The translations under genes were made by a program, and so were the position numbers. From a virus (lineage: Duplodnaviria > Heunggongvirae > Uroviricota > Caudoviricetes), in the IMG/VR virus record IMGVR_UViG_2778261277_000020, positions 1-12,945 of that record: a stretch of DNA of 12,945 nucleotides; one strand, given 5' to 3'. Shown one piece after another: positions 1-12,945 of this stretch; within the stretch, counting starts at the first letter, position 1; each line of letters begins with the position of its first letter. The notes under the pieces were generated by a model. The model ran no database searches and was not told where the DNA came from. It worked only from the letters and a program-made list of their open reading frames with translations.

Positions 1-1026
1 TTACTTGGAATATTTTCTTGGAATATTTTCAGGTAACGGGACATCAAGTGTTGGTGAAACTTTAACCTTCCTGTCATAGATTAGCACTTGCCCTTCGGTT
101 TTGTGACCAGAGAAAAGTTGCTTATCCCGGCTGCTTCCTTCATAGTCTGAAATTCCTTTCGCCTTCAGATCATGAAAGGTGAAGTCGGTTAAAATACCTG
201 AAATTTTGCCTGCGCGATTTCTTGCTTCTACCCACATTTCGTTAAAGCCTTTGTACATATATCGGTTGCCGTATTGATTGCTGATTACATAGGCGGATGT
301 TGGTAACTGTTTTGCTTTTTCGATCGCCGCCTGTAATCGTGGACTCCATGCTTTTATCTGTTTTTTCCCTGTTTTCCCTTGCTGGATAAAGATCCCGTCG
401 TTTCCAATCTGCTCCCATTTCAGCGATAACACATCGGAAACCCTCGCTGCACACAGATAGGCAATTTCCATTGCGATAAAAACAGGAAGAGGTGCAACGC
501 TTAATACTGCCTGGTATTCTTTGTCGGTTACATATCGTTCGCGGTTTTTGGCCTTGAATTTACTTACACCTGCACATGGGTTACCCTTCACGTACCCTCG
601 CTCATACCCCCAACTGTAAACGCGGGACATACTGCTTTTTTCATGGTTGGCTTGCGTTTTACTCTGTTCCCCTCTCTTGTCCATGTATCGACGGATGTGT
701 TCTGGTTTTATGGAATCTGCCGGCACCTTACCGAATACGGCAAGCAACTTTTTTTGATGTTGCAGATAATCTTTTTGTGTTCTTGGACTGAGGTCACTGT
801 AATAGGCGCTGGCGAGGAATTTTCCCCACAAACGACCGAATGTCATTGCGCGATCGCGATTATTTACAGTTTCCTCATACTTTTTCCATAAAGCAGCTAA
901 ACCATCCTTGATGGCGGTTAGTGTGACAGATTCTCTGGATGTTGGTTTCCATACATAACTATATTTATTTGGGTATACATTTGGAGGTAGTTTTTCGTGT
1001 TCAGGATTTTTCCTTCGTCTTCCCAT
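1..1026 (-). CDS. int: Phage integrase, tyrosine recombinase of the lambda Int family (complete, 341 aa)
   Basis: Full-length minus-strand ORF; N-terminus MGRRRK... resembles lambda Int N-terminal arm-binding region; C-terminal part has H/R/Y-containing segments (FHDLKAKG, GHKTEGQVLIYDRK) typical of the catalytic domain; start codon overlaps the xis stop (TAATG). Terminal position in a leftward operon, as in lambdoid phages. Confidence 0.9.
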   Translation of the reverse strand: MGRRRKNPEHEKLPPNVYPNKYSYVWKPTSRESVTLTAIKDGLAALWKKYEETVNNRDRAMTFGRLWGKFLASAYYSDLSPRTQKDYLQHQKKLLAVFGKVPADSIKPEHIRRYMDKRGEQSKTQANHEKSSMSRVYSWGYERGYVKGNPCAGVSKFKAKNRERYVTDKEYQAVLSVAPLPVFIAMEIAYLCAARVSDVLSLKWEQIGNDGIFIQQGKTGKKQIKAWSPRLQAAIEKAKQLPTSAYVISNQYGNRYMYKGFNEMWVEARNRAGKISGILTDFTFHDLKAKGISDYEGSSRDKQLFSGHKTEGQVLIYDRKVKVSPTLDVPLPENIPRKYSK

Positions 1027-1229
1027 TAGATTGCACCAAAATTCGGCTCTACCTCGCGTGGTGGTAAAGTTTTATTGCAGGTAAATAGATCCCGGCTGAC
1101 AATCGGTTTGCCACTACGATTGGTATAGAACGGAAGCCCGTTTTCCGTTAACCATTTTCGCTGGTGGCTTGCATATTTGCAGCCCGTTAATATCAGCAAT
1201 TCATCTTCGGTTAAAAATAAGCTGCTCAT
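1026..1229 (-). CDS. xis: Excisionase-like small DNA-binding protein (67 aa)
   Basis: Small basic ORF immediately upstream of, and translationally coupled to, int (stop/start overlap TAATG at 1024-1028). Position and size fit Xis; family assignment from memory only. Confidence 0.6.
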   Translation of the reverse strand: MSSLFLTEDELLILTGCKYASHQRKWLTENGLPFYTNRSGKPIVSRDLFTCNKTLPPREVEPNFGAI

Positions 1230-1246
1230 AGCTATATCTCATAACC

Positions 1247-1272
1247 GCCGCTAACTATATACGGTTAGCGGC
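1247..1272 (-). other. Perfect 9-bp inverted repeat (GCCGCTAAC / GTTAGCGGC, 8-nt loop) in the exonuclease-xis intergenic leader
   Basis: Read directly from sequence; no U-tract follows on the transcribed (minus) strand, so it is not a canonical intrinsic terminator. Confidence 0.4.
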
Positions 1273-1287
1273 AATTAGGGTTGAACA

Positions 1288-3672
1288 TTAAAAATCAGCC
1301 TGACTCGGGATCAGTTTTTGCCAGATAACTGAAACGTATTTTGCCTGGTAACGGGCGTCATCAAGTGCATTATGGCGCTCACCTTCGAATGGAATAGCCG
1401 TTCTGGCATCGAAGTCTATGGCTTTCCCCAGCTCAACGATTGTGCGTACATCGCGATCGTTGTGGTAGCGCCACGGGCAGGGGATCCCCTGCCGTTCATA
1501 TGAACGGCGTAAAATTACGTTGTCGAAGTTGGCTCCATTTCCCCAGACCTGAACAAAAAATTCACCGGAGTTTTCGGCGATAAATTCCCGCAATTGCAGT
1601 AGTGCATCATCTAACGGGATTTCATCGGTCAGAATGGTAGATTGCGCCTCGCGTGATTGCTTAAGCCACCATTTAATGGTGCCACGATCAATGACTCCGC
1701 CAGCAGTATCCAGATCGATGGTCTTACTAAATTCCGGTCCCATATCTCCGGTTTGCGGATCGAAAAATATTGCACCTATTGAGATAATCGGCGCATCAGG
1801 ATTTTTTCCCATCGTTTCAAGGTCGATCATTAGATGGTCACACGTCCTGCTGGTGGATGTGATAACGTGATGACCATTCACCGTAATTAAGGGATCTGTC
1901 GTCTCGCCAGTTTCACTATCGCTGGCGTGGTCCTGAGCGCTGCCAGCATTCTCCTTGTGTGGATGTTCAGCGCCTTCCATTTCCTCCGGATCTTTTTCCT
2001 GAGCTTCAGCCTGATTTTCTTTATCGAATGTTTCCTGGTATGTTGCGTCGCCCATCACTGCGCCACAATCAGGGCAGTTGCCTCCTCCCGGCTGACCGCA
2101 GGTATCGCAGACTTTCTCCTGCACAGGTTGATTTTCGACGTCGCTATTTTCCGTTTTTTCGACTTCATCTGAGAGGATTTGATGGCCGGGAATCCATTTC
2201 GGATCATTCGGGTCGCTAATCCCTTCAACAAATTCTCCGCGAGAGGCAGCCAGCAACTTATCGGCGTCAGGCTGGCTGACGTTTGCTGCCTGCATAATTT
2301 TGTTTACTTCGTTAGCGGTAACTTTTACCTGATTGACGGGATTTACCTGTGACTGAGCATCCAGCGGCTGCGTGTCCTGATGATGTTCAGTTGCATCCGG
2401 TTCCATTGTTTCAGCCGCTGCCTGTTCACATGCCATTGCGCCAGATGGTTGCGGTTTTTCTGCATCATTTTTTTCTTCTTCTGTTTCTTGCCCGGCAGCC
2501 AGCTCGCGGTTTATTTCTTCCAGAATATCTTTTTCCGGTGTATGTCGGGCAGCCGTGAGTGTTTCCTGGCTGGGGTTCTCGTGATCAGTCTCCGTTAAAT
2601 GGGCGTTGATATACCCCTGAAGGCGTCCCGGGTAGTGATAAAATTCAGGGTGTGCGCTTCGGATAAGTGCAAAAATAGCGGCGCGAGAGTAGTCCAGGAT
2701 ACCCGGGGTTGAGCGAAGTGCTGCTGACCACTCCCTGAACGGACTTTCTTTCTTCCGGACGATTTCTTTTGCGCGGCGATAAACGCTGCCAGGAATGTCA
2801 TAAATATTAAAATCCATCGGAAGCGTGGCTGCTGCAATCTCCAGATCCAGTGTATCGAGGGTGTGTACTAAATCCGGATTACGATCGGTTTTGTTTCCGC
2901 CTCCGGCATTTGCACCGGAAGCCGTACGGGTGATACGCGAAACACGATTTCCTTTCATCCACTCTTTTGTCAGCAGGCCGCGATCGGTGTAGTCAGCGTC
3001 CAGGTATGCTTCGAAAAAAGCAGTCATTAATCCCAGACTGGAATTAACGGGATTAGGGAAAACTTTGTCAGTGTCGCGAACCAGTTTGTGGTGGTCGCGA
3101 AGTTCCAGTGGGTCGAGCAGGCTGGTTTTGTGCGAAATAGCCAGGGCAGTAACTGCCGGTAGCTCTTCAGCCCGAGCGATATGTAATGCCTGAAGTTCAT
3201 CTCTTGAAACGTGTGTTACTGGTTTTTCGCTGCCGTGTTGAGCAAGCCAACGGATTGCCACCTCCTGACCGGAAACTGGCAGGAGCATGCTCTCCTCAAT
3301 CTCCGTCATGTCTTCGCCGTTAACATTGGTATTTTCGGTGCTGGCTGGTTTGTTCTGCACAGAGGGAGATGGCGCGGTGAATACCATTGTGATGCCATCT
3401 TCACCGCCTTTTTCATAGCGGTTACAGAATTCGGTATCAAACACGCCTTCTGGTGGAAGGTCATTCACAACAGGCAAATGGACGCGAACAGGTTTTTTAA
3501 AGTCCTCTTCGTCGTAACCAGCATCATCCATTGCGACATTACCGCGGGAAACTGCAACAGATAATTTTTTTGCTGTAGTCCAGTAAAAACCTCCTTTAAT
3601 ACCGAGACGTTTTCTGACTTTGTCATTTTTGGCTTCGTAATGGAGTGCAATGTCTTGTTTGTCAGTGCTCAT
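1288..3672 (-). CDS. Exodeoxyribonuclease VIII-like protein (794 aa): RecE-like N-terminal/central region fused to a C-terminal DEDDh (DnaQ-like) 3'-5' exonuclease domain
   Basis: ATG at 3672 with GAGG 9 nt upstream. Central segments ([57 protein letters not shown], Cys-x2-Cys...Cys-x2-Cys [17 protein letters not shown]) match my memory of the E. coli Rac RecE N-terminal region. The C-terminal ~180 aa carry DEDDh motifs (MIDLETMG; [10 protein letters not shown]; HNALDDARY). Confidence 0.8.
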
Positions 3673-3707
3673 TGTTTTTAACCTCAGCTAAGATTAAAAT
3701 TCCTCCG

Positions 3708-3767
3708 GAATGATGAATAAATGTCCCAGGTTCATCATTCTGGCCTGCACTGAGTGCAGGCCTTTTT
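3708..3767 (+). terminator. Two adjacent hairpins; the second (GGCCTGCAC...GTGCAGGCC followed by T5 at 3763-3767) has plus-strand intrinsic-terminator geometry
   Basis: Hairpin A: 10-bp perfect stem GAATGATGAA / TTCATCATTC (3708-3740). Hairpin B: GC-rich stem 3742-3762 then TTTTT. The T-run is on the plus strand, antisense to the leftward operon. Confidence 0.4.
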
Positions 3768-3772
3768 ACCAT

Positions 3773-4048
3773 TCAGATTTCATCTTTTAGTTCTGTCCCA
3801 ATCAGAGAGGCCAGATACATGTCTTTTTTTTCTGCAGGCAGATTCTTAATGATATGCACCAGACACATTTTTTTAACACCATCGTTAAGTGTTTTAACAT
3901 TTCCTGAGAAACCGTAGATATCAACCACAGTGAATGGGGTTTCTTTATTTTCTGTCTTAATTACGTAGCCAATACGCTTTTCTTCAAGATTAACCTCGTG
4001 AACAATATTATCAGCAGTAACAGTAGTGACTTCATAACTGGTAATCAT
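3773..4048 (-). CDS. Hypothetical protein (91 aa)
   Basis: ATG at 4048 preceded by AGGAGAAAAAT (strong SD); ORF track start at 4096 is an upstream non-ATG extension. No recognisable motif. Confidence 0.55.
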   Translation of the reverse strand: MITSYEVTTVTADNIVHEVNLEEKRIGYVIKTENKETPFTVVDIYGFSGNVKTLNDGVKKMCLVHIIKNLPAEKKDMYLASLIGTELKDEI

Positions 4049-4132
4049 ATTTTTCTCCTTAATTAAGGTTGAGTGAATCCCTGCCATTGCTGGCATATAA
4101 GAATGAAACCGTACATTTGTGACGTAGCTGCT

Positions 4133-4324
4133 TTAAATACTTGTCGTGACTTCTTTATTATCCTGACGAATAACTTTATCAACCTGATAACAGTTACCTG
4201 GAATTTTCTGTTCTTCTGCAGCAGCCATGCATTCTTTCATGGAGTTGTATATTCCTGTAACTATATCAACCGGTTCACCGGAAACAAGAAAAACAGTCAT
4301 AACAAGCGCGAATACTGTATTCAT
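4133..4324 (-). CDS. Small protein (63 aa) with hydrophobic N-terminus (signal peptide or single TM helix), two Cys
   Basis: ATG at 4324 with GGAGA 5 nt upstream; start overlaps stop of upstream gene (TGATG). N-terminus MNTVFALVMTVFLVSG is hydrophobic. Confidence 0.5.
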   Translation of the reverse strand: MNTVFALVMTVFLVSGEPVDIVTGIYNSMKECMAAAEEQKIPGNCYQVDKVIRQDNKEVTTSI

Positions 4325-4509
4325 CAGTGTCTCCAGAAAATACCAAGTCTGAGAAGAGCCATTCTGGAAAGTATGGAATTATCATTGAGAAAATAAGGCT
4401 CATATTTCCTCATATTAATGGCATCTTCAGTAAACTCACGGTTACTGATTTGAACACCAATTTCAAAACAACCTTCAGATGTATTGATGTTGGGTAATAA
4501 CGTTTCCAT
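4324..4509 (-). CDS. Hypothetical protein (61 aa)
   Basis: ATG at 4509 with GAGGAA 8 nt upstream; lies 14 nt downstream of the rha stop; same-strand operon context. Confidence 0.45.
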   Translation of the reverse strand: METLLPNINTSEGCFEIGVQISNREFTEDAINMRKYEPYFLNDNSILSRMALLRLGIFWRH

Positions 4510-4523
4510 TATCGTTTCCTCGA

Positions 4524-5078
4524 TCAATGGATATTAAGTAACTGCTCCACGGTCATATTTTTAATTACGTCCCTGTTCACAAGCGTCCATCCCTGTTTCT
4601 CCAGATAAAAGCGGAAGGTATCCAGGGTGCAGACCATTGCACCATCAGGAACGGTTTCAGTGAATTTGATGTTGCCGTGTTCGTCGAGACGGATAACCAG
4701 GGTACGTCCGTCCCCGTGAATCATTTTGTCGGGAGACGGGGCGTTATTCTGGCGCAGTTCTTTCTCCATGCGATCGAACTCAGCGATGTAGGCTTCTTTA
4801 AATGCAGCGGCTTTTTTGCCGGTGAAGCCCATCACCAGGAAAACGAAGCCGTTTTTGGTGATTTGGTACATAGGGAGTTTGCGTCCTGTTGAGTCGGTGT
4901 ATTCGCTCGACACAAAATTGTGCTCAGTGAATTTTGCTGAACAGTCCAGATTGCGAATTTTATCCAACACTCGTTCGTGGCGTTTACCAAAGAACTCGGC
5001 GATCGCAACAGACGTAGTGACAGCGCGACCATTTTCGATGGTTACATCAGGGTGATAAATGGTAGGGGTAGTAGCCAT
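4524..5078 (-). CDS. rha: Rha-family phage regulatory protein (184 aa)
   Basis: N-terminal ~100 aa (IENGRAVTTSVAIAEFFGKRHERVLDKIRNLDCS...MYQITKNGFVFLVMGFTGKKAAAFKEAYIAEF) match the Rha domain as I recall it. ATG at 5078 with GGAGG 8 nt upstream. The 282-aa ORF in the track is an in-frame upstream extension that contains a terminator hairpin. Confidence 0.8.
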   Translation of the reverse strand: MATTPTIYHPDVTIENGRAVTTSVAIAEFFGKRHERVLDKIRNLDCSAKFTEHNFVSSEYTDSTGRKLPMYQITKNGFVFLVMGFTGKKAAAFKEAYIAEFDRMEKELRQNNAPSPDKMIHGDGRTLVIRLDEHGNIKFTETVPDGAMVCTLDTFRFYLEKQGWTLVNRDVIKNMTVEQLLNIH

Positions 5079-5244
5079 GATGGCAGCCTCCGCGATGAAT
5101 TTAATTAACTCACCACCAGAGGTGCTAATCTCATGGGTGGTGAGACGCACAGGGTTAGCACTACCGGTCATCACGGAACCCGGCCAGCCTTGCGGCTGCC
5201 CTGCACGCCTCACCATAATGCGAATGTGGCTGTGCTTAACGCAT

Positions 5245-5267
5245 AAAAAAACCGCCTGAGCGCGGTT
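5245..5267 (-). terminator. Minus-strand intrinsic-terminator-like hairpin (6-bp stem AACCGC / GCGGTT, 6-nt loop) followed by U7
   Basis: Plus-strand sequence AAAAAAACCGCCTGAGCGCGGTT at 5245-5267; on the minus strand this is stem-loop plus TTTTTTT. Confidence 0.5.
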
Positions 5268-5948
5268 ATGCGCCGTGATTGACTTCGGGGTGCTAATCCC
5301 GGCACCCGTTTTATGAGGTGCAGATGAACTATAATTCCACCCGTACTGGTTTTCAATAGCTACATTCAACATTTTCTCTTACCCTTCATCACCGAAGTGA
5401 ACTTTGTTGATGCAGTGCCTGGTGCCTCCAGGTGACGTTAACCAGTTAACAATTAACGCCGGAATACAGAAGTATGCCCGTTACGCCCCGTAAAAGACCA
5501 CTTTACGGTTTTAACTGTTCCGCGTGCGCTTAGCCGCATTCACCGCATCACAAAATTCACTTTAAAAAGGGTGGCAGAGCAGTCACGGAGTAGAACTGAT
5601 GCCACCAAAGACTACACATGGGTATTGTGGCGGGGCTGTCACTTAAGCGTATGGTCAACCTGACAACCCGGTGCATTTTCTGGAGCAATGGAGGAAACCC
5701 CAGCCATACTTACCGCCGCGCCATTTCGCGGATTGCCACAACCGGAAGCGCACGTTCGAGGAAATCTAACGACAAGCCTTCTAAGGGAAAGAGCTTCGCC
5801 GTACGCTTTCGCGTTATGCCCTGACTTTTCAGGGAAATATCCTTTCAGTAAACTGTCAGTACCGGATTCTTATCCGTGTCCGGCGCACGACCGCACGTGA
5901 CAGCGTGTTGGTCTCCATTTTTAACCCAGAACCTCAATGGAGGATAAA

Positions 5949-6158
5949 ATGCCAAACAAAAAAAGAAATCCGCTTATTGAAAAACAGATTGAATGCCTGG
6001 TAAATCAACTCAGGCAATCAGGGTTATTAAAAACTCATTCAGAGTTGAGGCTCACAGAATCAGCATTCGACGATAAATTAAATAATGTCCTTTATAATGG
6101 CATTATTGATTTTAATCGTTCTGTTGGTCGCCGCGGCCCTGCTGGTGTTTCCTTATAA
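5949..6158 (+). CDS. Hypothetical small protein (69 aa), AT-rich
   Basis: ATG at 5949 with GGAGGA at 5939-5944; convergent with the next gene, stop codons back to back (TAA 6156-6158 / TAA on minus at 6159-6161). Confidence 0.5.
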   Translation: MPNKKRNPLIEKQIECLVNQLRQSGLLKTHSELRLTESAFDDKLNNVLYNGIIDFNRSVGRRGPAGVSL

Positions 6159-6809
6159 TTACCAGTCAATCCAGAGCGGACCGTGTTCAGCGTAAATATA
6201 ACTGTACACATCCAGATTATATTTGTGGTCTGTTAAGAACAGGCCGCAAATACATGCCGAAGCTTCCAGGGCAGCGGCTCTGTTACTGAATAACCATGTA
6301 GCAACATTCCAGCGTTTTTCTGCATCCCAGTCTTTCTCAAGGCCTGATACCATGAAGAAACCGTTAGTGTTGCCATCAAATAATTCTGTTTCCAGATTTT
6401 TAAGCAATGCCTGATGGACTCTTGCCAGGTATTCCGCCGGAATTTCGCCACGAATTCTGATGAGATTGTCATAAACAAACATGTTCCCCGCATATGGCGA
6501 TTTTTCTTTCTTGTTTTTTAAACCAGCATCATGAGCAAACTGATCAATTTCTTCTTCCGTTGGTTTCGTATTGATGTTTTGCGCTGTCGTTTCTGCAATT
6601 TTATTTGCCACACTCTCTGAGTCGTGTTTATTTATAGACGCACAGAAATACAATCCGGTAAACGCATCGCGCACATTACGAGCCATATTATCAGTGTCTT
6701 TTTTCGTTACCGATTCCAATTCAAGTTCGTTCAGACGATGACGAAGTGTGTGTGCTGCAATCTCTTGGATTGAAGGAGGTAAATCTTTAAATTCCATCGT
6801 CAACCTCAT
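6159..6809 (-). CDS. Hypothetical protein (216 aa from ATG 6809; 212 aa if ATG 6797), AT-rich, no TM segment
   Basis: ATG at 6809 overlaps the stop of the upstream 50-aa gene (TGATG); the alternative ATG at 6797 has GAGG 7 nt upstream. No motif I can name. Confidence 0.65.
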   Translation of the reverse strand: MRLTMEFKDLPPSIQEIAAHTLRHRLNELELESVTKKDTDNMARNVRDAFTGLYFCASINKHDSESVANKIAETTAQNINTKPTEEEIDQFAHDAGLKNKKEKSPYAGNMFVYDNLIRIRGEIPAEYLARVHQALLKNLETELFDGNTNGFFMVSGLEKDWDAEKRWNVATWLFSNRAAALEASACICGLFLTDHKYNLDVYSYIYAEHGPLWIDW

Positions 6810-6961
6810 CAGTCAGTGTTTCTGGCTAACCAGCGACGCGCGCCAGCTGCGGTTTTAAACGTTTTGCTTCTGGTATACGTCATCGCGGTAAACGTGCCGT
6901 CCAGGTTGGGGAATACTCCGCATACCAGAGATTCGTTGTTGCCAAGATTGAGCGTATCCAT
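6809..6961 (-). CDS. Hypothetical small protein (50 aa) with basic C-terminus
   Basis: ATG at 6961 with GAGG 5 nt upstream; first gene leftward of the OL-like palindrome; stop overlaps next start. Confidence 0.45.
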   Translation of the reverse strand: MDTLNLGNNESLVCGVFPNLDGTFTAMTYTRSKTFKTAAGARRWLARNTD

Positions 6962-7139
6962 GTTGACCTCATTTCCCCTTAACGCCGGGTAGCGGAACAA
7001 AAACCTGCTGCATAGTTATTAAAGTTGAACCCTGCCGTCATGTTCTTACGCCTCGGGCTGGCTACTTAACCCCTGACCACTGCCTGGTAACTCGAAGTAT
7101 TGCCTGGCGTTCTGTGGGCGGGGTGGGTTGGTGAATACA

Positions 7140-7186
7140 ATCTACAATTAAAAACTGTTTTATGTCAACAGTTTTTAATTGTAGAT
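7140..7186. promoter_or_regulatory. 47-bp perfect palindrome (20-bp arms ATCTACAATTAAAAACTGTT, 7-bp spacer): candidate OL-like operator
   Basis: Read directly; shares the half-site TACAAT(A/T)AAAAACTGT with the palindrome at 8178-8218; lies between the terminator after parE and the first leftward gene. Confidence 0.6.
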
Positions 7187-7192
7187 CTGAGC

Positions 7193-7215
7193 AAAAAAAA
7201 TCCCTCGAAAGAGGG
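7193..7215 (-). terminator. Minus-strand intrinsic-terminator-like hairpin (CCCTC-GAAA-GAGGG) followed by U8, downstream of parE
   Basis: Plus strand AAAAAAAATCCCTCGAAAGAGGG at 7193-7215; on the minus strand this is stem-loop then 8 U; about 20 nt past the parE stop (7235). Confidence 0.5.
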
Positions 7216-7234
7216 AGTATGAAAATTGTTCAGC

Positions 7235-7522
7235 TCAGATAGAGGAGGGAAATTGTCGGCGAGCATGTATCACGCTTACAATCTCAATGCTTGAAGCAGC
7301 TACTCTGTACAGGATTATGTAGTTAGGGTGGGTCACTATCTCTCTCACCCCTGAAACCCGTTCGCTTAGTGGATATAGGTACGGATGCTCAGATAGAGGT
7401 AATACCGATGTTTCAATGCGTATTTTTAGTCTGCGCGCTGCCGGTGGGTTCTCCTTGGCGATGTAAGTTATGATCTGACGCAAATCATCGCGAGCAGATG
7501 GTAGCCATAAAATGGGTAACAT
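7235..7522 (-). CDS. parE: ParE/RelE-family toxin (95 aa)
   Basis: Sequence LRQIITYIAKENPPAARRL...IVSVIHARRQFP is typical of ParE toxins; start overlaps the antitoxin stop (TAATG). Confidence 0.85.
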   Translation of the reverse strand: MLPILWLPSARDDLRQIITYIAKENPPAARRLKIRIETSVLPLSEHPYLYPLSERVSGVREIVTHPNYIILYRVAASSIEIVSVIHARRQFPSSI

Positions 7523-7713
7523 TACTCGCTCCTGTTAGTTACAACGATTTGAGCAATAAGATTTTCCATTTCAGCCATTACCTCGTCATGTGGAATTGCG
7601 GGACGAGGGTCTGCAAGGCTCGACGCTACTTTAGCGCGCAACCATTCGTTGTAACTGTTTTCTTGTTCGATAGTTTCGAATTCTGAAACTATCGGAGAAA
7701 GGGCTGTACCCAT
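7522..7713 (-). CDS. paaA: PaaA2-like antitoxin (63 aa)
   Basis: SEFETIEQENSYNEWLRAKVASSLADPRPAIPHDEV matches my memory of PaaA2 from the E. coli O157 paaR2-paaA2-parE2 module; GAGGAG SD 7 nt upstream of ATG 7713. Confidence 0.75.
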   Translation of the reverse strand: MGTALSPIVSEFETIEQENSYNEWLRAKVASSLADPRPAIPHDEVMAEMENLIAQIVVTNRSE

Positions 7714-7740
7714 GGCATAACTCCTCTTCTTGTACTGTGG

Positions 7741-8142
7741 TCACGCCCGGCGGCTTTTTTGTGCCGCCAGCCACCGGGCAATGGTTTCTTCCATTGATTT
7801 TTTCTTGTCTTTGATTTCTTGAAGCATTTTTTCTTGGTCTTCCTCAGGGAACGCACTAAAAGCCTGGAGCAGTTCGCGTTGGCGAGGACCAATTTTCATC
7901 GTGTCAGGGGTGAAAATTTGCTCCCCCTCTTCAGGAGGCAATAAAAACCAATGCAATGGATGCCCTGTAACCTCAACCAGTTTATCCAAACTTGAGGCTT
8001 TAGGTGTAGCCTTACCGCTGACCCATTGTTGAACAGTTTGTTGTGTCACACCAATTCTACGGGCAAGCTCAGCCTGGCTCCATCCAGTTTCCTGAAGAAG
8101 CTTGCTGATTCTGTACATAGATACTTCTAGGGCGCTCATCAT
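7741..8142 (-). CDS. paaR: PaaR2-like / CI-like HTH (XRE family) transcriptional repressor (133 aa)
   Basis: N-terminal HTH (WSQAELARRIGVTQQTVQQWVSG); first gene of the three-gene cassette; divergent from a cro-like gene across a palindromic operator; no SD before the ATG (possibly leaderless). Confidence 0.75.
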   Translation of the reverse strand: MMSALEVSMYRISKLLQETGWSQAELARRIGVTQQTVQQWVSGKATPKASSLDKLVEVTGHPLHWFLLPPEEGEQIFTPDTMKIGPRQRELLQAFSAFPEEDQEKMLQEIKDKKKSMEETIARWLAAQKSRRA

Positions 8143-8177
8143 TATTCAATTTTACAGGTAAATACTGTTAAAAGCAT

Positions 8178-8218
8178 TACAATAAAAAACTGTTGATCAA
8201 ATACAGTTTTTTATTGTA
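8178..8218. promoter_or_regulatory. 41-bp perfect palindrome (16-bp arms TACAATAAAAAACTGT, 9-bp spacer TGATCAAAT) in the divergent paaR / ydaS control region: candidate OR-like operator
   Basis: Read directly; sits between paaR start (8142) and ydaS start (8251); a TATAGT -10-like hexamer at 8228-8233 lies just downstream on the plus strand. Confidence 0.6.
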
Positions 8219-8250
8219 GCCTTTGCCTATAGTTTTTAGAGGAGGGGAAA

Positions 8251-8523
8251 ATGCTAGATAGCACTCGCGAAAAAATTAGGCAGAAATACACTCAGGCTGA
8301 AATAGGTCGTTATATGGGGGTCGCCCAACAGACCGTTTGGCAATGGTTTAGCTTTGGCGTCCCCCCAAAGCAGGTAATTCCGCTATGTCAGCTAATGAAG
8401 TGGGAAGTTACCCCGCATGAAATTCGCCCAGACATTTACCCTAACCCAACTGACGGTTTACCTGTTGGATGTAAGGCTAACACACCAAATGCACCGGAGA
8501 TGATTCATGAAAATCAAGCATGA
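8251..8523 (+). CDS. ydaS: Cro-like HTH protein of the YdaS family (90 aa)
   Basis: Strong SD GAGGAGGGG then ATG 8251; HTH AEIGRYMGVAQQTVWQW and the EIRPDI motif I associate with YdaS/Cro-like proteins; divergent from the repressor gene. Confidence 0.75.
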   Translation: MLDSTREKIRQKYTQAEIGRYMGVAQQTVWQWFSFGVPPKQVIPLCQLMKWEVTPHEIRPDIYPNPTDGLPVGCKANTPNAPEMIHENQA

Positions 8524-8932
8524 ACATATCCGCATGGCGATGAATGCCTGGGCGCATCCGGACGGCGAAAAAGTACCGGCTGCGAAAATTACCAAAGCGT
8601 ATTTCGAGCTGGGAATGACGTTCCCGGAACTGTATGACGACAGCCATCCGGAAGCCCTGGCTCGCAATACTCAGAAAATTTTCCGCTGGGTGGAGAAAGA
8701 CACCCCTGATGCGGTTAAAAAAATTCAGGCGTTGTTACCAGCTATCGAAAAAGCAATGCCACCTCTGCTGGTGGCCCGAATGCGCAGCCATAGCTCAGCC
8801 TATTTTCGGGAACTGGTGGAGACGCGGGAACGACTGGTGAGAGACGCTGATGATTTTGTCGCAGTGGCGATCGCTGGTTTCAACCAGATGAATCGTGGTG
8901 GCCCTGCAGGAAATATTGTGGCTGTGCATTGA
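8507..8932 (+). CDS. ydaT: YdaT-like protein (CII functional analogue), 141 aa
   Basis: Starts MKIKHEHI..., as I recall for Rac / CP-933P YdaT; overlaps ydaS by 17 nt; GGAGA SD 7 nt upstream. Confidence 0.75.
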   Translation: MKIKHEHIRMAMNAWAHPDGEKVPAAKITKAYFELGMTFPELYDDSHPEALARNTQKIFRWVEKDTPDAVKKIQALLPAIEKAMPPLLVARMRSHSSAYFRELVETRERLVRDADDFVAVAIAGFNQMNRGGPAGNIVAVH

Positions 8933-9003
8933 CTCGCAATATTCATACCGGATCACTTCCGGCAATTTGTGAGTAAAAAGATTCGGTATCAGAAGAGGTG
9001 AGT

Positions 9004-10044
9004 ATGGCTAACGCCTGGCTCAGATTATGGCATGACATGCCAAATGATCCTAAGTGGCGAACAATTTCCAGGGTGTCAGGACAGCCAATCGCAACAGTGA
9101 TGGCTGTGTATATCCACCTTCTGGTGAGCGCGTCACGAAATGTCACGACATGTCACGGCGTGTCACTACGTGGTCACATTGATGTCACGACGGAGGATTT
9201 AGCAAGTGCGCTTGATGTGACGGAAGAGGTAATTGATTCAATTTTACAGGCAATGCAGGGGCGGGTACTTGATGGAGATTTAATCTCTGGATGGGAAAAA
9301 CGCCAGGTACTGAAAGAGGACAATGGCAACGTTTCACAAACCGCGAAATCCCCGGCAGAGCGCAAGAGAGCGCAGCGCGAGAGGGAAAAATTACGAAAAC
9401 AGAATGAGGGGGGGCATGACGAGTCACGCATATGTCACGACATGTCACGACGAGTCACGACAGATAAAGATACAGATAAAGAATTAAACCCCACACATAA
9501 CGCGCGCGTGCGCGAGAGTGCTCCGACCAGTGAGTCGAATGGCGTGCCGTTGCAGGCAGCGGAACCTGATTACCTGGAAGGCCTGAGCGAACCCATCGGG
9601 AAATTTCCGATGACTGATGGCTGGCATCCGTCGCCGGATTTTCGACGGCGGGCAGCTCTGTGGGGAGTGGCTCTGCCGGAGCCGGAATTTACACCAGCTG
9701 AACTTGCCGCCTTCCGGGACTACTGGGCAGCGGAGGGTAAAGTTTTCACACAGGTTCAGTGGGAGCAGAAATTCGCCCGTCACGTAAATCACGTCAGGGC
9801 GCAGGTTAAACCAGTCAGCAAGGGGGGGAACCATGCAGCAGCACCAGGTGGCACCGCATCACGGGCAGTTCAGGAAATTCGGGCAGCACGTGAGCAGTGG
9901 GAACGTGAAAACGGATTTATCAGCGACGGAAACGGCGTGGAAGCTGTGGGAACTCATGGGGGAGGTTTATTCGAACCGCTGGACCCAGAAGAACGGGGCC
10001 GCACCTTCGAAGCTCTGGATTGCACAGATTGGTGCGATGACTGA
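9004..10044 (+). CDS. Replication initiator, lambda O-like (YdaU / DUF1376-type N-terminal domain), 346 aa
   Basis: ATG 9004 with AGAGG 5 nt upstream; N-terminus [36 protein letters not shown]; two iteron clusters inside the gene, as for lambda ori within O. Confidence 0.7.
9132..9190 (+). repeat. Iteron cluster 1: six direct repeats with GTCAC core at about 10-11-bp spacing
   Basis: CGTCACGAAA TGTCACGACA TGTCACGGCG TGTCACTACG TGGTCACATT GATGTCACGA read directly. Confidence 0.6.
9423..9482 (+). repeat. Iteron cluster 2 (four (T/A)GTCACGAC repeats, 10-bp spacing) followed by AT-rich direct repeat CAGATAAAGA x2: probable origin core
   Basis: GAGTCACGCA TATGTCACGA CATGTCACGA CGAGTCACGA CAGATAAAGATACAGATAAAGA read directly; iterons plus adjacent AT-rich tract is the classical lambdoid ori layout. 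Confidence 0.6.
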
Positions 10045-10510
10045 GCAGCAAATCCGACAGGTCTGCCGCCAGTGCATGGACCGCTGCCGGGCGGGTGAAA
10101 CATGGCCTCCGGACCTGGCTGAGTTTGTGGCGCTGATTTCGGAGAGTGGGGCAAATCCATTCGGTCTGACGGTGGATGCTGTGATGGAGGAGTACCGCCG
10201 CTGGCGCAACGACTCCTGGCGATACGACGGAAGCGATAAATACCCGTGGTCTCAGCCTGTGCTGTATCACATTTGCCTCGAGATGCGGGCAAAAGGGGTT
10301 GAGCGTCAGATGACCGAAGGGGAGTTAAAACGACTTGCAGAACGGCAACTGGCGAAATGGGCAAAACATGTTGGTATGGGCCTGAGTGTTCCGCCTGTCC
10401 GGCGACAACTGGCTGCACCAAAACGCCCGTCGGGACCAACGCCAGTTGAGTTGCTGAAACAGGAGTATGAACGCCGGAAAGCGGCTGGTTTTGTTGGAGT
10501 TGAGAAGTAA
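9833..10510 (+). CDS. Replication protein, lambda P-like (helicase loader), about 225 aa; start uncertain
   Basis: C-terminal half ([40 protein letters not shown]...[16 protein letters not shown]) resembles lambda P as I recall it. ATG 9833 has a G-rich SD (AGGGGGGG, 4-nt spacer) but implies a 212-nt out-of-frame overlap with the O-like gene; alternative starts at 9956 or 10037. Confidence 0.6.
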
Positions 10511-10532
10511 TTTTTACCGGGAGGAAATTTTA

Positions 10533-11303
10533 ATGGAAACTGTTTTTGATGCACTGAAAGCAATGGGAAAAGCCACGTCGGTGGAACTGGCTACGCGACT
10601 TGATATCAGTCGTGAAGAAGTGCTGAACGAGCTGTGGGAACTCAAAAGAAATGGCGTCGTTGATAAAACTGGTCACACCTGGTTTCTGGCTGGCGAAGGT
10701 GAATCCCGGGTAACCGAAGAGCGGCCAGTAAAATCTGAAGCACAGGATATGCTGACCGGGGAGGTCGAACAAAAAGTTACCGCAGACATGATGATTGAGT
10801 TTATCGGTCAGGAGGGGGCTAAAACGTGTGAGGAACTGGCGGGTAAGTTCGGTGTCAGTACTCGCAAAGTTGCTTCCACGCTGGCTGTGGTAACCGCAAC
10901 GGGGCGGCTGGCACGCGTTAATCAGAACGGTAAATTTCGTTACTGCATGCCGGGCGATAAGTTACCAGCAGAGCCGAAATCCGTGCCGGTAACGGAAAAT
11001 GATGGTAAGGCCTTTCCTCAGCCAGCAGGTGTTGCGTTACCAGTACAGGAAGGGGCAACACAGGAAGATATAAAAACAGAAACTGTAGCGGACATTGTGC
11101 AATCGTTGCCATCGTTTACTGAAACGCGAGCGGATGACCTGGTTTTACCATCGCTGCATATGGCAAACCGCGAATTGCGTCGGGCGAAAAATCATGTTCA
11201 GAAGTGGGGGCGTGTCTGCGCCGCGCTGCGGGAGCTGAACAAGCACCGGGATATTGTTCGACATATTACGGATTCTTCCCGCCGTGTTGCATCGGAAAAG
11301 TGA
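10533..11303 (+). CDS. Hypothetical protein (256 aa) with two winged-helix-like segments
   Basis: ATG 10533 with GGGAGG 8 nt upstream; two segments with wHTH-like pattern (ATSVELATRLDISREEVLNELWELKRNGVV; KTCEELAGKFGVSTRKVASTLAVVTATGRLARV). Confidence 0.6.
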   Translation: METVFDALKAMGKATSVELATRLDISREEVLNELWELKRNGVVDKTGHTWFLAGEGESRVTEERPVKSEAQDMLTGEVEQKVTADMMIEFIGQEGAKTCEELAGKFGVSTRKVASTLAVVTATGRLARVNQNGKFRYCMPGDKLPAEPKSVPVTENDGKAFPQPAGVALPVQEGATQEDIKTETVADIVQSLPSFTETRADDLVLPSLHMANRELRRAKNHVQKWGRVCAALRELNKHRDIVRHITDSSRRVASEK

Positions 11304-11318
11304 TTGCCGGAGGCGCTT

Positions 11319-11741
11319 ATGGCAAAAGTATTTACACAAGAAGAGCGGGAAAAAATTAAAGGGCAGGTGGTTGAACTCGTGCGCCAGAGCGGTCGTGAGA
11401 CGTTACGGCAACTGGAAGCCAAGACAGGTGCGACAAGATATCTGATGAGCGTTCTCGCCAGAGAGCTGGCTGCCAGTGGCGATGTATACAACTCTGGTTA
11501 CGGGTTATTCCCGTCTGAACAGGCGCGTAAGGACTGGCAAAATGCCCGTAAAAAGCTCTCAAGGGCAAAGCTGAAGAAACCATCTGCGGTTGATCCGGAC
11601 CTTATCTGGTCATTACCAGACGGAGAAATACGTCGCTACGACAGTCGCCTAAACATAATCTGTCGCGAGTGCCGGAAGAGCGAAGTTATGCAGCGTGTAC
11701 TGGCTTTCTATCAGGGTAATTTTCAGGAGGCGGTACTGTGA
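11319..11741 (+). CDS. Hypothetical protein (140 aa)
   Basis: ATG 11319 with GGAGG 5 nt upstream; no recognised motif. Confidence 0.55.
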   Translation: MAKVFTQEEREKIKGQVVELVRQSGRETLRQLEAKTGATRYLMSVLARELAASGDVYNSGYGLFPSEQARKDWQNARKKLSRAKLKKPSAVDPDLIWSLPDGEIRRYDSRLNIICRECRKSEVMQRVLAFYQGNFQEAVL

Positions 11742-11798
11742 GTGAAATTAGCTATCAGGCTTCAATTACCGCTGGCATTCGCATCAAAGGAGAGGAGC

Positions 11799-12155
11799 AT
11801 GGAAATAAAACCAGAAGATGAGTTAAGCAATATCGTTTTATTTCCGGTAAAAGAGGATGACCCTCGTAATCAGGTTAATTTTCTTTATGAGCCATCGGAA
11901 AGACCATATTGCCATCACGCTTCTGTCCGGGTTGACGAAAAAGAGCGTCAGGTCCGCTGTAAAATCTGCGGTGCAGTTGTGGAGCCATTTGACTGGATGC
12001 TCTCTGTGGCGAAAAGAGAAACCAGACTGGCAGATGATGTAAGGCTATTGCGCCAGGAGGAACAGGAAAGACGGAAAAATATAGAAAAGTTAATTCAGAT
12101 TGAGCGTAACGCGAAAGCGCGGATACGCAGGGTGACAAAATCCAGAACTGAATAA
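11799..12155 (+). CDS. Hypothetical protein (118 aa) with Cys/His cluster (CHH...CKIC), possible zinc ribbon
   Basis: ATG 11799 with AAGGAGAGG upstream; C-terminal half charged and helical-looking. Confidence 0.55.
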   Translation: MEIKPEDELSNIVLFPVKEDDPRNQVNFLYEPSERPYCHHASVRVDEKERQVRCKICGAVVEPFDWMLSVAKRETRLADDVRLLRQEEQERRKNIEKLIQIERNAKARIRRVTKSRTE

Positions 12156-12250
12156 TTAAATTTAGCACTGTTAAAAATTCGATCCTTAACCGGAGGGATT
12201 TCTGCACCCTCAGAACATCAGGAGGCCGCCCGAAAGGGCGGTAACAAATA

Positions 12251-12727
12251 ATGCAAGAAATCAAAGAAAATATCAGGCAACAGCTTTACGGGTTTTATAT
12301 TGCTTATGATTTGTGGCTGAAGAACGGGGCAAAACCCGGCGGAGTGTTTTCTCAAAATTATGGTTTATGCGCCAATCTTTTCGATTATCTCACATTAATT
12401 GGTACCCCCTGTGAGGCAGCGCTGGAGCAATTACACGCTGATTTCAGAAGTGCCGGGCTGAATGAGGCGTTGCCGTTTAACGAGGGTAAAGAGCATTACC
12501 ATGAAGAAAGAGGGCACAACATGTGCCATATGAATCCGGCACGAGTGGCGTGGGTCAGGGCGCAGACAGGGCAGCCAGCGCCGGAAGGACTGGTTAAAGC
12601 GGTGCGCTTCTATGAACAGGTTAAGCGTGAAAATCCGCCAGTCGAAACCGGAGCATGGAAAGACGCTGTTGACTGGGTTCTCGAAGAGGCTTGTCAGGCT
12701 GTAAACATTCGCATCAAAGGAGAGTGA
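12251..12727 (+). CDS. Hypothetical protein (158 aa)
   Basis: Long ORF with consistent coding look; GGAGG lies 25 nt upstream, separated from the ATG by a GNRA-loop hairpin. Confidence 0.6.
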   Translation: MQEIKENIRQQLYGFYIAYDLWLKNGAKPGGVFSQNYGLCANLFDYLTLIGTPCEAALEQLHADFRSAGLNEALPFNEGKEHYHEERGHNMCHMNPARVAWVRAQTGQPAPEGLVKAVRFYEQVKRENPPVETGAWKDAVDWVLEEACQAVNIRIKGE

Positions 12728-12729
12728 GA

Positions 12730-12945
12730 ATGCAAATTTCACCGGTTACTCTTCGTGTTGCGAAGGCGTTTATATCCAGACATCACCGACACAATAAACC
12801 ACCTGTTGGGCATAAATTCAGCATTGGTCTGATAAATGATGCCGGAGAATTGATAGGTGTGGCGACAGCTGGTCGACCTGTTGCACGACATTTGGACGAT
12901 GGATTAACGCTTGAAGTAAATCGCACATGTACCACAGGAGAACGC
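12730..12945 (+). CDS. Hypothetical protein, 5' part only (runs off the right edge)
   Basis: ATG 12730 preceded by AAAGGAGAG; open frame to the window end (MQISPVTLRVAKAFISRHHRHNKPPVGHKFSIGLINDAGELIGVATAGRPVARH...). Not in the ORF track because no stop lies within the window. Confidence 0.45.
   Translation, partial: MQISPVTLRVAKAFISRHHRHNKPPVGHKFSIGLINDAGELIGVATAGRPVARHLDDGLTLEVNRTCTTGER

Follow-up and report, generated by a model that had tools for sequence, protein, structure and literature searches.

In phage lambda, the replication genes are followed in the same orientation by the ren/nin region, a strongly mosaic segment that contains a Ren-family gene and lies ahead of a Holliday-junction resolvase and Q. 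In classical genetics, the Ren phenotype is the escape of the phage from Rex exclusion. The use of short conserved boundary sequences as sites of module exchange is a long-standing idea for the lambdoid phages. A published study calls lambda ren 'likely involved in DNA replication' and reports that the Rex proteins contact O/Ren in two-hybrid assays (bioRxiv 10.1101/2021.04.19.439022). Here we analysed a stretch of 12,945 nucleotides (nt), positions 1 to 12,945 of the IMG/VR virus record IMGVR_UViG_2778261277_000020, which is the early region of a Rac/lambda-type Escherichia coli lambdoid prophage. The whole stretch is referred to as the window, and the five genes at its right end, which occupy 10533-12945, are referred to as g1 to g5 (Table 1). 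These genes very probably represent an ordinary mosaic accessory segment of the early right region of such a prophage, in the position of lambda ren/nin. They are a string of independently inherited small cassettes and not a five-part machine.

The best public match to this part of the window is NZ_CP101920 (locus L001), with 99.0% identity over 10400-12945. RefSeq calls the same five plus-strand open reading frames (ORFs) in L001, in the place behind the replication genes where a sequence-only reading of the window had put them. That reading had also proposed to follow the locus rightward, and the relatives made this possible. The last gene, which runs past the window end, is complete in L001 (163 amino acids, aa), and Q is found farther right, ~4.4 kb past that gene. 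Five further contigs encode the exact g4 protein; the distance from g4 to Q is 5-6 kb in three of them and ~4 kb in two. The hok, DUF968 and RusA genes are located between the five genes and Q in L001 and in several of the exact-g4 contigs (among L095-L099). The relatives thus agree with the proposed correspondence to the lambda slot, behind the O-like and P-like genes and ahead of DUF968, RusA and Q. Two differences from lambda are evident. The resolvase of the lambda nin region is NinG/Rap, whereas the relatives of this locus have RusA downstream, and lambda has no YdaW-type gene between P and Ren, the place taken here by the extra gene g1. Profile searches against PHROG, Pfam and NCBIfam gave no match of the five proteins to a family named for NinB to NinI; these searches included no direct comparison with the lambda Nin sequences. 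The sequence-only reading had called all five genes unknown, which is right with respect to their function. It was wrong on how recognisable they are, as each belongs to a catalogued family: PF07789 (g1), PF06163 (g2), phrog_1621 (g3), phrog_26213, phrog_6418, phrog_2510 and phrog_660 (g4) and NF045478 (g5). Nor are the five all well-characterised proteins; g3 and g4 have no characterised relative, and Ren and YdaW are themselves poorly understood.

The distribution of the genes bears out the mosaic character that was expected of the region. Among 5426 complete E. coli genomes, only 8 match 80% or more of the five-gene region. The prevalence of the single genes in these genomes differs widely, from 4207 for g2 together with g3 and 2712 for g1 to 154 for g5, 20 of whose places are on plasmids, and 29 for the g4 N-module. 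In 80 viral contigs that contain g3, g2 is nearly always upstream of it, g1 is optional, with P-g2-g3 arrangements occurring without it, and g4 and g5 are each optional and rare. The synteny comparison across relatives placed the g2-g5 block behind three different replication modules. None of the complete E. coli genomes in the collection covers 80% or more of the whole window, and the best matches reach 59-71% coverage, in several pieces. The left half and the right end of the window resemble different prophage sets; the window is therefore itself a recombinant that is unrepresented among the complete genomes. Its arrangement combines known modules in a new way. Identical proteins have already been deposited hundreds of times in public collections, and nothing here is categorically new. 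As such, the finding adds little more than one further mosaic accessory region. It provides a clean example of short exact junctions shuffling small cargo genes.

Two kinds of junction mark the points at which the cassettes are swapped. The first is a linker, CATTCGCATCAAAGGAGAG, that occurs in the window as an exact direct repeat (Table 1). Its 18-nt core, ATTCGCATCAAAGGAGAG, is found at 11777 and 12707 and extends to 19 nt with the leading C; the chance expectation is 0.01 copies. The core serves two neighbours at once, coding the C-terminal IRIKGE of the upstream gene and providing the next one with its AAGGAG ribosome-binding site. The fetched loci contain the core 222 times, and the ORFs that come after it there belong to at least 13 unrelated families; in IMG/VR, at least 120 stretches have it. 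It is also found around genes of the XF1762 family, to which g5 belongs, in an integrative conjugative element, a plasmid and a P2-like prophage.

The second junction is a leader of ~60 nt between g3 and g4. Its RNA fold has a z of -3.1, and its hairpin ends 9 nt 5' of the g4 ATG. In related loci, the leader precedes at least five unrelated ORFs, and divergence between the loci begins just past the hairpin. We found it in 64 distinct contexts, 55 of which follow g3 and 9 of which do not. The 17 distinct variants contain one double compensatory change (CCACCC/GGGTGG) and a few G-U changes, which is too little variation for a covariation analysis. No Rfam family matched within 10533-12945, the leader included. 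The hairpin might shorten the effective distance between the upstream ribosome-binding motif and the ATG, or might simply mark a recombination junction. Exchange of the cassettes would take place at these short conserved sequences, the 18-nt core and the hairpin leader after g3.

The gene in front of the leader, g3, had drawn attention in the sequence-only reading through a CHH...CKIC cluster, and the cluster proved to be conserved. Residues C38, H40, C54 and C57 (nt 11910-11969) are invariant in distant homologues, which are 31-42% identical to g3 and come from phages of Klebsiella, Serratia, Enterobacter, Hafnia, Providencia and Morganella. Several residues of the basic coiled-coil tail are likewise invariant, and the C-terminal half of g3 matches only coiled-coil chains in the PDB. 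Five of six distant homologues lie amid early genes, three of these between the replication genes and Q. These features suggest that g3 may act as a zinc-binding coiled-coil adaptor. No sequence-related solved structure was found for g3, nor for g2 or g4. A more specific candidate role, that of a Com-like translational activator of the Mom-like g5, was rejected. Gene g3 is far commoner than g5, its distant homologues are not located beside Mom-like genes, and the leader also occurs without g3. When the g3-family profile is aligned with Mu Com, the match is weak (hhalign E 5e-4, probability 31%) and limited to a zinc-knuckle motif, and its register is shifted, the second knuckle of g3 being paired with the first knuckle of Com.

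A Com-like g3 acting through the hairpin leader would also be an element of a broader alternative, in which the five genes form one co-functional system, for instance an anti-defence operon. The genes are compact and on the same strand, with a gap of 2 nt between g4 and g5. The order g2-g3-g4-g5-87aa is kept at four of the five exact-g4 places, g2 and g3 are adjacent in most g3 loci, and the leader usually follows g3, all of which speaks for such a system, as does the weak alignment with Com. However, the prevalence of the genes spans two orders of magnitude, and g1, g4 and g5 are each dispensable beside g3. The distant g3 homologues have quite different neighbours, and their stop codons overlap the next gene, so that they have no leader; the leader is in turn found without g3. 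In addition, plasmids, an integrative conjugative element and P2-like prophages have g5 by itself, and the register of the Com alignment is wrong. A single system is thus already disfavoured, and we regard it as highly improbable. A defence-system reading of the region was rejected as well, since PADLOC returned no meaningful matches: the g1 winged helices matched Csa3/CARF helix-turn-helix (HTH) regions weakly, and g2-g5 matched nothing.

Promoter-like and terminator-like sites in the region show no excess over shuffled expectation, and the five genes would most likely be read together with the replication genes on the rightward early transcript. The gaps between the genes, beginning with that between the P-like gene and g1, are 22, 15, 57, 95 and 2 nt. 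The tight spacing noted in the sequence-only reading therefore applies to part of the genes and not to the gaps of 57 and 95 nt. That reading had also seen acceptable Shine-Dalgarno (SD) sequences on all five genes, and this holds for four, which have strong motifs at canonical spacing: GGGAGGA 7 nt 5' of the ATG for g1 (-10.3 kcal/mol), GGAGG at 4 nt for g2 (-9.5 kcal/mol), and AAGGAG at 5-6 nt for both g3 and g5 (-8.7 kcal/mol). These four would be translated from canonical ribosome-binding sites. The exception is g4. Its sole SD-like motif, the AGGAGG of the leader, is 25 nt 5' of the ATG, with the hairpin, which has a stem of 6 bp, in between. The expression of g4 is uncertain because it lacks a canonical ribosome-binding site, and this counts against our reading of the segment.

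The g4 protein itself is a recombinant of two pieces. It has no match in Pfam, NCBIfam or PADLOC, and its two halves match different PHROGs. Residues 1-~105 match one set of proteins, including 210-aa forms with another tail. Dozens of proteins with an ead/Ea22-like annotation end in the same C-module, at 79-100% identity. The Pfam scan did not find the Ead_Ea22 domain (PF13935) in g4, which has no more than its C-terminal ~60 residues in common with proteins that contain this domain, and lambda Ea22 shares with g4 only the final hexapeptide IRIKGE; the ends of g4, g5 and Ea22 are coded by the same 18 nt. The two genes also differ in location, as lambda Ea22 belongs to the exo-xis region, while g4 lies to the right of the immunity region. 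The exact g4 protein is present in 546 blocks of the assembly collection. At the fifth of the places examined (L097), where the common gene order is not kept, no g3 gene is called. We consider g4 a probable recombinant cargo protein, with a C-module known from the ead/Ea22-like-annotated proteins.

Membership of g2 in the Ren family is supported by several comparisons. It matches Pfam DUF977 (PF06163) at 2e-30 and the 'Ren-like exclusion protein' profile phrog_142 at 1e-47 over its full length (profile positions 1-115 of 116). Lambda Ren (NP_040633, 96 aa) matches the same profile at 1.6e-41 over positions 11-110. In a direct BLASTP comparison, g2 and lambda Ren align with an E of 2e-6, with 55% identity over a 20-residue C-terminal motif, NIICRECRKSEVMQRVLAFY in g2. 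The residues common to both follow the pattern N-[IL]-[IV]-x-[RK]-E-C-R-[KQ]-S-x-x-M-[QK]-R-V-L-A-x-Y. Both proteins also have an N-terminal winged helix, and DUF977 has been called a winged helix before (PMC2686095). The differences are considerable. Lambda Ren is 44 residues shorter, g2 having an insert between the winged helix and the C-terminal motif; BLASTP detects no similarity outside the motif; and lambda Ren has no Pfam match, unlike g2. No rexAB genes were noticed in the window.

The protein encoded by g1 belongs to the DUF1627 family (PF07789; 2e-96, 320 bits against a cut-off of 28.1) and to phrog_630 (5e-136). The 99% identical copy of g1 is labelled DUF1627 domain-containing protein in RefSeq, and phage records use the name LygF. 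Residues 1-154 of g1 are 58% identical to residues 1-151 of YdaW (b1361) of the K-12 Rac prophage (E 1e-61), a region that covers both winged helices of g1. The alignment stops at residue 151 of the 186 residues of YdaW, and K-12 YdaW therefore has no counterpart of the C-terminal helical part of g1. Like g1, YdaW directly follows the replication-loader gene. Judged from the alignment, g1 is the full-length counterpart of K-12 Rac YdaW. The YdaW name has been applied inconsistently, both 'putative YdaW family protein' and 'LygF' being used in phage records for the region, and ydaW of K-12 (L222:4753-5313) has no similarity to g2.

Two winged-helix-like segments had been noticed in g1 in the sequence-only reading. 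They are supported by HTH-family profiles at aa 2-62 and 86-135, by an AlphaFold2 (AF2) model and by Foldseek. In the first segment, HTH_11, MntR, ArsR/SmtB and TrmB profiles match aa 2-62, all under their curated cut-offs, and AF2 predicts helices at 4-11, 16-23 and 27-39 with a predicted local distance difference test score (pLDDT) of 65-80; the wing is not modelled with confidence. The second segment matches FeoC at 21.9 bits against a cut-off of 21 and PafC under its cut-off, and aa 84-138 match the 'Ren-like' phrog_142 at 4e-6. Its model consists of helices at 84-94, 99-106 and 110-123 followed by a beta-hairpin with strands at 127-129 and 135-137. Residues 138-184 have no secondary structure in the model (pLDDT <50), and a long helix is modelled at 206-255; phrog_29124 and phrog_1888 match the C-terminal part alone. 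Foldseek searches with the model gave weak matches (E >= 0.02), most of them to small domains, and these small domains are winged helices. Two more specific identities were rejected. A Zalpha domain, binding Z-DNA or Z-RNA, was raised by weak phmmer matches of the ADAR1/E3L Zalpha type in the PDB (E 0.1-0.75) and by Foldseek, which also listed Zalpha. ADAR1 Zalpha contacts Z-DNA through Asn173 (N173) and Tyr177 (Y177). In an alignment made by eye, g1 has Leu and Trp at these positions in its first copy and Ala and Ala in its second, suggesting that the similarity is that of winged helices in general. A tandem duplication of a Ren-like domain was rejected since only the second winged helix matches phrog_142, and hhalign comparisons with g2 and Ren, which used a shallow g1 alignment, gave E values of 0.028 and 0.25.

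What the two winged-helix proteins do can be proposed with some caution. Tentatively, and with rather less than even confidence, we suggest that g1 and g2 act in early lytic growth at the interface between phage replication and host abortive infection or exclusion. The Ren membership of g2 points in this direction, as does an overexpression screen that listed ydaW as one of the prophage-gene 'blockers' of RcaT, the toxin of retron-Sen2 (bioRxiv 10.1101/2020.06.22.160242); this is the only functional datum on YdaW. Several observations weigh against the proposal. K-12 YdaW is a truncated relative of g1, and its retron result comes from overexpression. The link of g1 to Ren consists of one sub-domain profile match (4e-6) that hhalign did not confirm. 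The AF2 model of g1 is poor (pLDDT 52 overall and 60-80 in the winged-helix segments), because the available alignment is only 88-98% identical. A different role for g1 and g2 would be that of replication accessory factors, which assist the O-like and P-like proteins at the origin and have no part in counter-defence. Both genes lie directly 3' of the replication genes in every relative examined, the winged-helix architecture would suit such a function, and lambda ren has been described as likely replication-linked, with two-hybrid contacts reported for Ren (bioRxiv 10.1101/2021.04.19.439022). However, the same g1 and g2 are found behind DnaT/P genes, behind IstB/DnaC-like genes and behind a gene for a protein of 369-378 aa without a Pfam match, and g1 is optional. 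Three unrelated replication modules and an optional g1 do not agree with a partnership specific to one initiator, and fit a host-directed role. We therefore consider the replication-factor role unlikely and favour the host-directed one.

The best lead comes from the last gene, g5. Mom of phage Mu is a GNAT that moves glycine from Gly-tRNA to the N6 position of adenine in DNA; its activity requires R111, S124, D149, R151 and an HTH-like insertion (PMC13219725). The window contains the first 72 codons of g5, and our searches used the full protein from L001 (L001:14331-14822), which RefSeq labels an XF1762 family protein. It scores 204.4 bits against the NCBIfam model XF1762_fam (NF045478; equivalog cut-off 50, E 6e-61) and matches phrog_1384, 'Mom-like DNA modification protein', at 4.5e-42; Mu Mom is in the same PHROG. 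An AF2 model of a 98% identical XF1762 protein has the GNAT fold (pLDDT 84, predicted template modelling score 0.76). Its top Foldseek match in the PDB is Mu Mom (8bv8), with an E of 1.3e-8 and a template modelling score (TM) of 0.71. Residues were paired in an L-INS-i local-pair alignment of Mom with 41 diverse XF1762 proteins, which are remote from it in sequence (Table 1). Across 132 diverse members of the family, conservation reaches 95% or more at every paired g5 residue but D101 and W124; R65 and S76 are 99% and 96% conserved. The canonical pyrophosphate loop of GNAT enzymes reads R/Q-x-x-G-x-G/A. At the aligned position, Mom has RNSES and g5 has RNANS.

A number of findings limit how far this relationship can be taken. 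Against the Pfam Mom model (PF25680), g5 scores 23.5 bits, under the cut-off of 27.1; fused members of the XF1762 family pass it in 4 of 10 cases tested (27.3-32.5 bits). The sequence similarity of g5 and Mu Mom is marginal, with an hhalign E of 0.012 and 3.9 bits for a hidden Markov model of 132 XF1762 sequences. In the alignment, Mom R151 faces a gap in g5, and Y159 of Mom is Leu107. The HTH-like insertion of Mom (residues ~175-209) corresponds to g5 aa ~121-146, a segment that is ~20 residues shorter, is modelled with a pLDDT of 59-77 and two 4-residue helices, and is not conserved in the family; its single residue with a counterpart is W124, opposite Mom W181. The g5 model is matched nearly as well by generic acetyltransferases (TM ~0.6) as by Mom (TM ~0.7). 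Mu Mom is also ~70 residues longer than g5. Both are stand-alone phage accessory genes, and while mom is overlapped by the regulator com, no com-like gene overlaps g5. We conclude that g5 is a predicted stand-alone enzyme of the Mom superfamily with a GNAT fold, and not a Mom orthologue.

The closeness of other acetyltransferases raises the alternative that g5 is an ordinary acetyl-CoA-dependent GNAT, acting on a protein, a small molecule or, in the manner of TacT-type toxins, an aminoacyl-tRNA, and not modifying DNA. Hundreds of such proteins match the model at E < 1e-3 with a TM of ~0.6, including RimI, phosphinothricin acetyltransferases and SpeG. The marginal similarity to Mom in sequence, the lack of conservation of R151 and of the HTH-like insertion, and the variable C-terminal third of the family (past residue ~110) would also be explained. 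On the other hand, Mom is the best PDB match and falls into the same PHROG as g5, and the canonical pyrophosphate loop is replaced in both. No conserved adjacent partner resembling an antitoxin was found; a search for any constant partner gene was likewise negative, the downstream neighbours falling into at least four unrelated groups. The domain fusions of the family point to functions in DNA or in conflict. They join XF1762 to a C5 DNA methylase, a D12 N6-adenine DNA methylase, DUF6884, a recombinase domain, and YodL with LPD28 (representatives P0428, P0387, P0452, P0446 and P0434), and thus include two classes of DNA methyltransferase and polyvalent proteins. A relative in BFVD is an ART-PolyVal protein of 877 aa. 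Some of the fusions could be gene-calling artefacts of metagenomic contigs. An ordinary GNAT is in our view possible, if rather doubtful. For g5 as a Mom-like acyltransferase, the role that we consider likeliest is modification of a nucleic acid, probably DNA, by which the mobile element would escape restriction; we put its chance somewhat short of even.

XF1762 is a large family separate from Mom, with 3821 representatives of 50%-identity clusters at E <= 1e-3. Mobile elements of several kinds have its genes in their accessory regions, namely lambdoid, P22-like and P2-like prophages, an integrative conjugative element and a mobilisable plasmid; in the plasmid, the XF1762 gene adjoins one for an LPD7 polyvalent protein. 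In a lambdoid prophage of Klebsiella pneumoniae (L004:6796-8381), an XF1762 gene shares its accessory region with an adjacent Kiwa defence system (KwaA/KwaB) of opposite orientation. We raise the speculative idea, which on balance is unlikely, that XF1762 is a second and far more widespread Mom-type branch. Its members would be compact, stand-alone acyltransferases that make an undescribed nucleic-acid modification, possibly from an aminoacyl-tRNA donor like that of Mom, and their genes would be portable anti-restriction cassettes, spread by prophages (lambdoid, P22-like and P2-like) as well as by integrative conjugative elements and plasmids. A more modest version of this proposal would have g1, of the YdaW type, and g2, of the Ren type, serve as dedicated inhibitors of abortive infection, for example by retrons or Rex. 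We know of no report on the chemistry of XF1762 proteins. The family is a tractable candidate, having thousands of members on mobile elements and most of the catalytic residues of Mom without its DNA-binding insertion. If XF1762 proteins do modify DNA, they would represent a new mobile anti-restriction activity, and the class of tRNA-dependent GNAT enzymes defined by Mom would be widened.

Table 1. Features of the window and of related loci, and g5 residues paired with Mu Mom. Positions are those of the window unless a locus is named.
Feature	Position	Strand	Basis, counterpart or remark
g1, DUF1627/LygF protein, 256 aa	10533..11303	+	Pfam DUF1627, phrog_630, YdaW homology
g1 winged-helix-like segment 1, aa 1-56	10533..10700	+	HTH profiles, AF2 helices
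g1 winged-helix segment 2, aa 81-140	10773..10952	+	FeoC, PafC HTH, DDRGK, phrog_142; AF2
g1 long C-terminal helix, aa ~199-255	11127..11297	+	AF2, pLDDT 65-73
g2, DUF977 protein, 140 aa, Ren family	11319..11741	+	Pfam DUF977, phrog_142
g2 C-terminal motif, aa 112-131	11652-11711	+	BLASTP to lambda Ren
Junction linker, copy 1, carries g3 SD	11776..11794	+	Exact direct repeat
g3, zinc-ribbon and coiled-coil protein, 118 aa	11799..12155	+	phrog_1621 (1e-55), weak TFIIB zinc-ribbon match
Leader between g3 and g4	12183..12243	+	AGGAGG (12220-12225), then GC hairpin with GAAA loop (12226-12241)
g4, two-module protein, 158 aa	12251..12727	+	PHROGs differ by half, BLASTP break-points
g4 N-module, aa 1-~105	12251-12565	+	
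g4 C-module, aa ~98-158	12542-12724	+	
Junction linker, copy 2, codes IRIKGE end of g4, carries g5 SD	12706..12724	+	
g5, first 72 codons of 163-aa XF1762-family GNAT	12730..12945 (window end)	+	NCBIfam, phrog_1384, AF2/Foldseek
Junction linker, copy 3, end of g5	L001:14801-14819		
Junction linker at lambda ea22 3' end	L223:351-368		
g5 H19			Mu Mom H58
g5 N64-R65			Mu Mom N110-R111
g5 N73			Mu Mom N121
g5 S76			Mu Mom S124
g5 D101-E102			Mu Mom D149-E150
g5 W124			Mu Mom W181
Integrase	1-1026	minus	
DnaT-domain O-like protein	8998-10044		Directly before P-like gene
Lambda-P-family protein	ends 10510		After O-like gene, before g1

The remainder of the window has the composition of a lambdoid early region. 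The integrase gene is followed from left to right by genes for a 794-aa exonuclease, a cluster of small RNAs, a cI-like repressor gene, and cro-like and YdaT-like genes. The longest ORF for the P-like gene, with a start at 9833, would share 212 nt with the O-like gene; its equivalent in RefSeq starts at the position matching 10037 and overlaps the O-like stop codon by a few bases. Beside the repressor gene, overlapping ORFs of 95 and 63 aa lie on the minus strand at 7235-7713, and agree in size and position with a ParE_toxin/PaaA2 toxin-antitoxin pair of the related contig L095. Three Rfam families scored above their gathering thresholds on the minus strand: C4 antisense RNA (5133-5220), isrK (5245-5321) and DicF (5569-5620). 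These RNAs adjoin a 282-aa ORF (4524-5372, minus strand), whose counterpart in related contigs has Phage_ASH and pRha domains; in related genomes, the RefSeq name is Rha family phage regulatory protein. The region 5133-5620 resembles a P1-type C4/antirepressor control module located beside a division-inhibition cluster of the DicF/DicB type.

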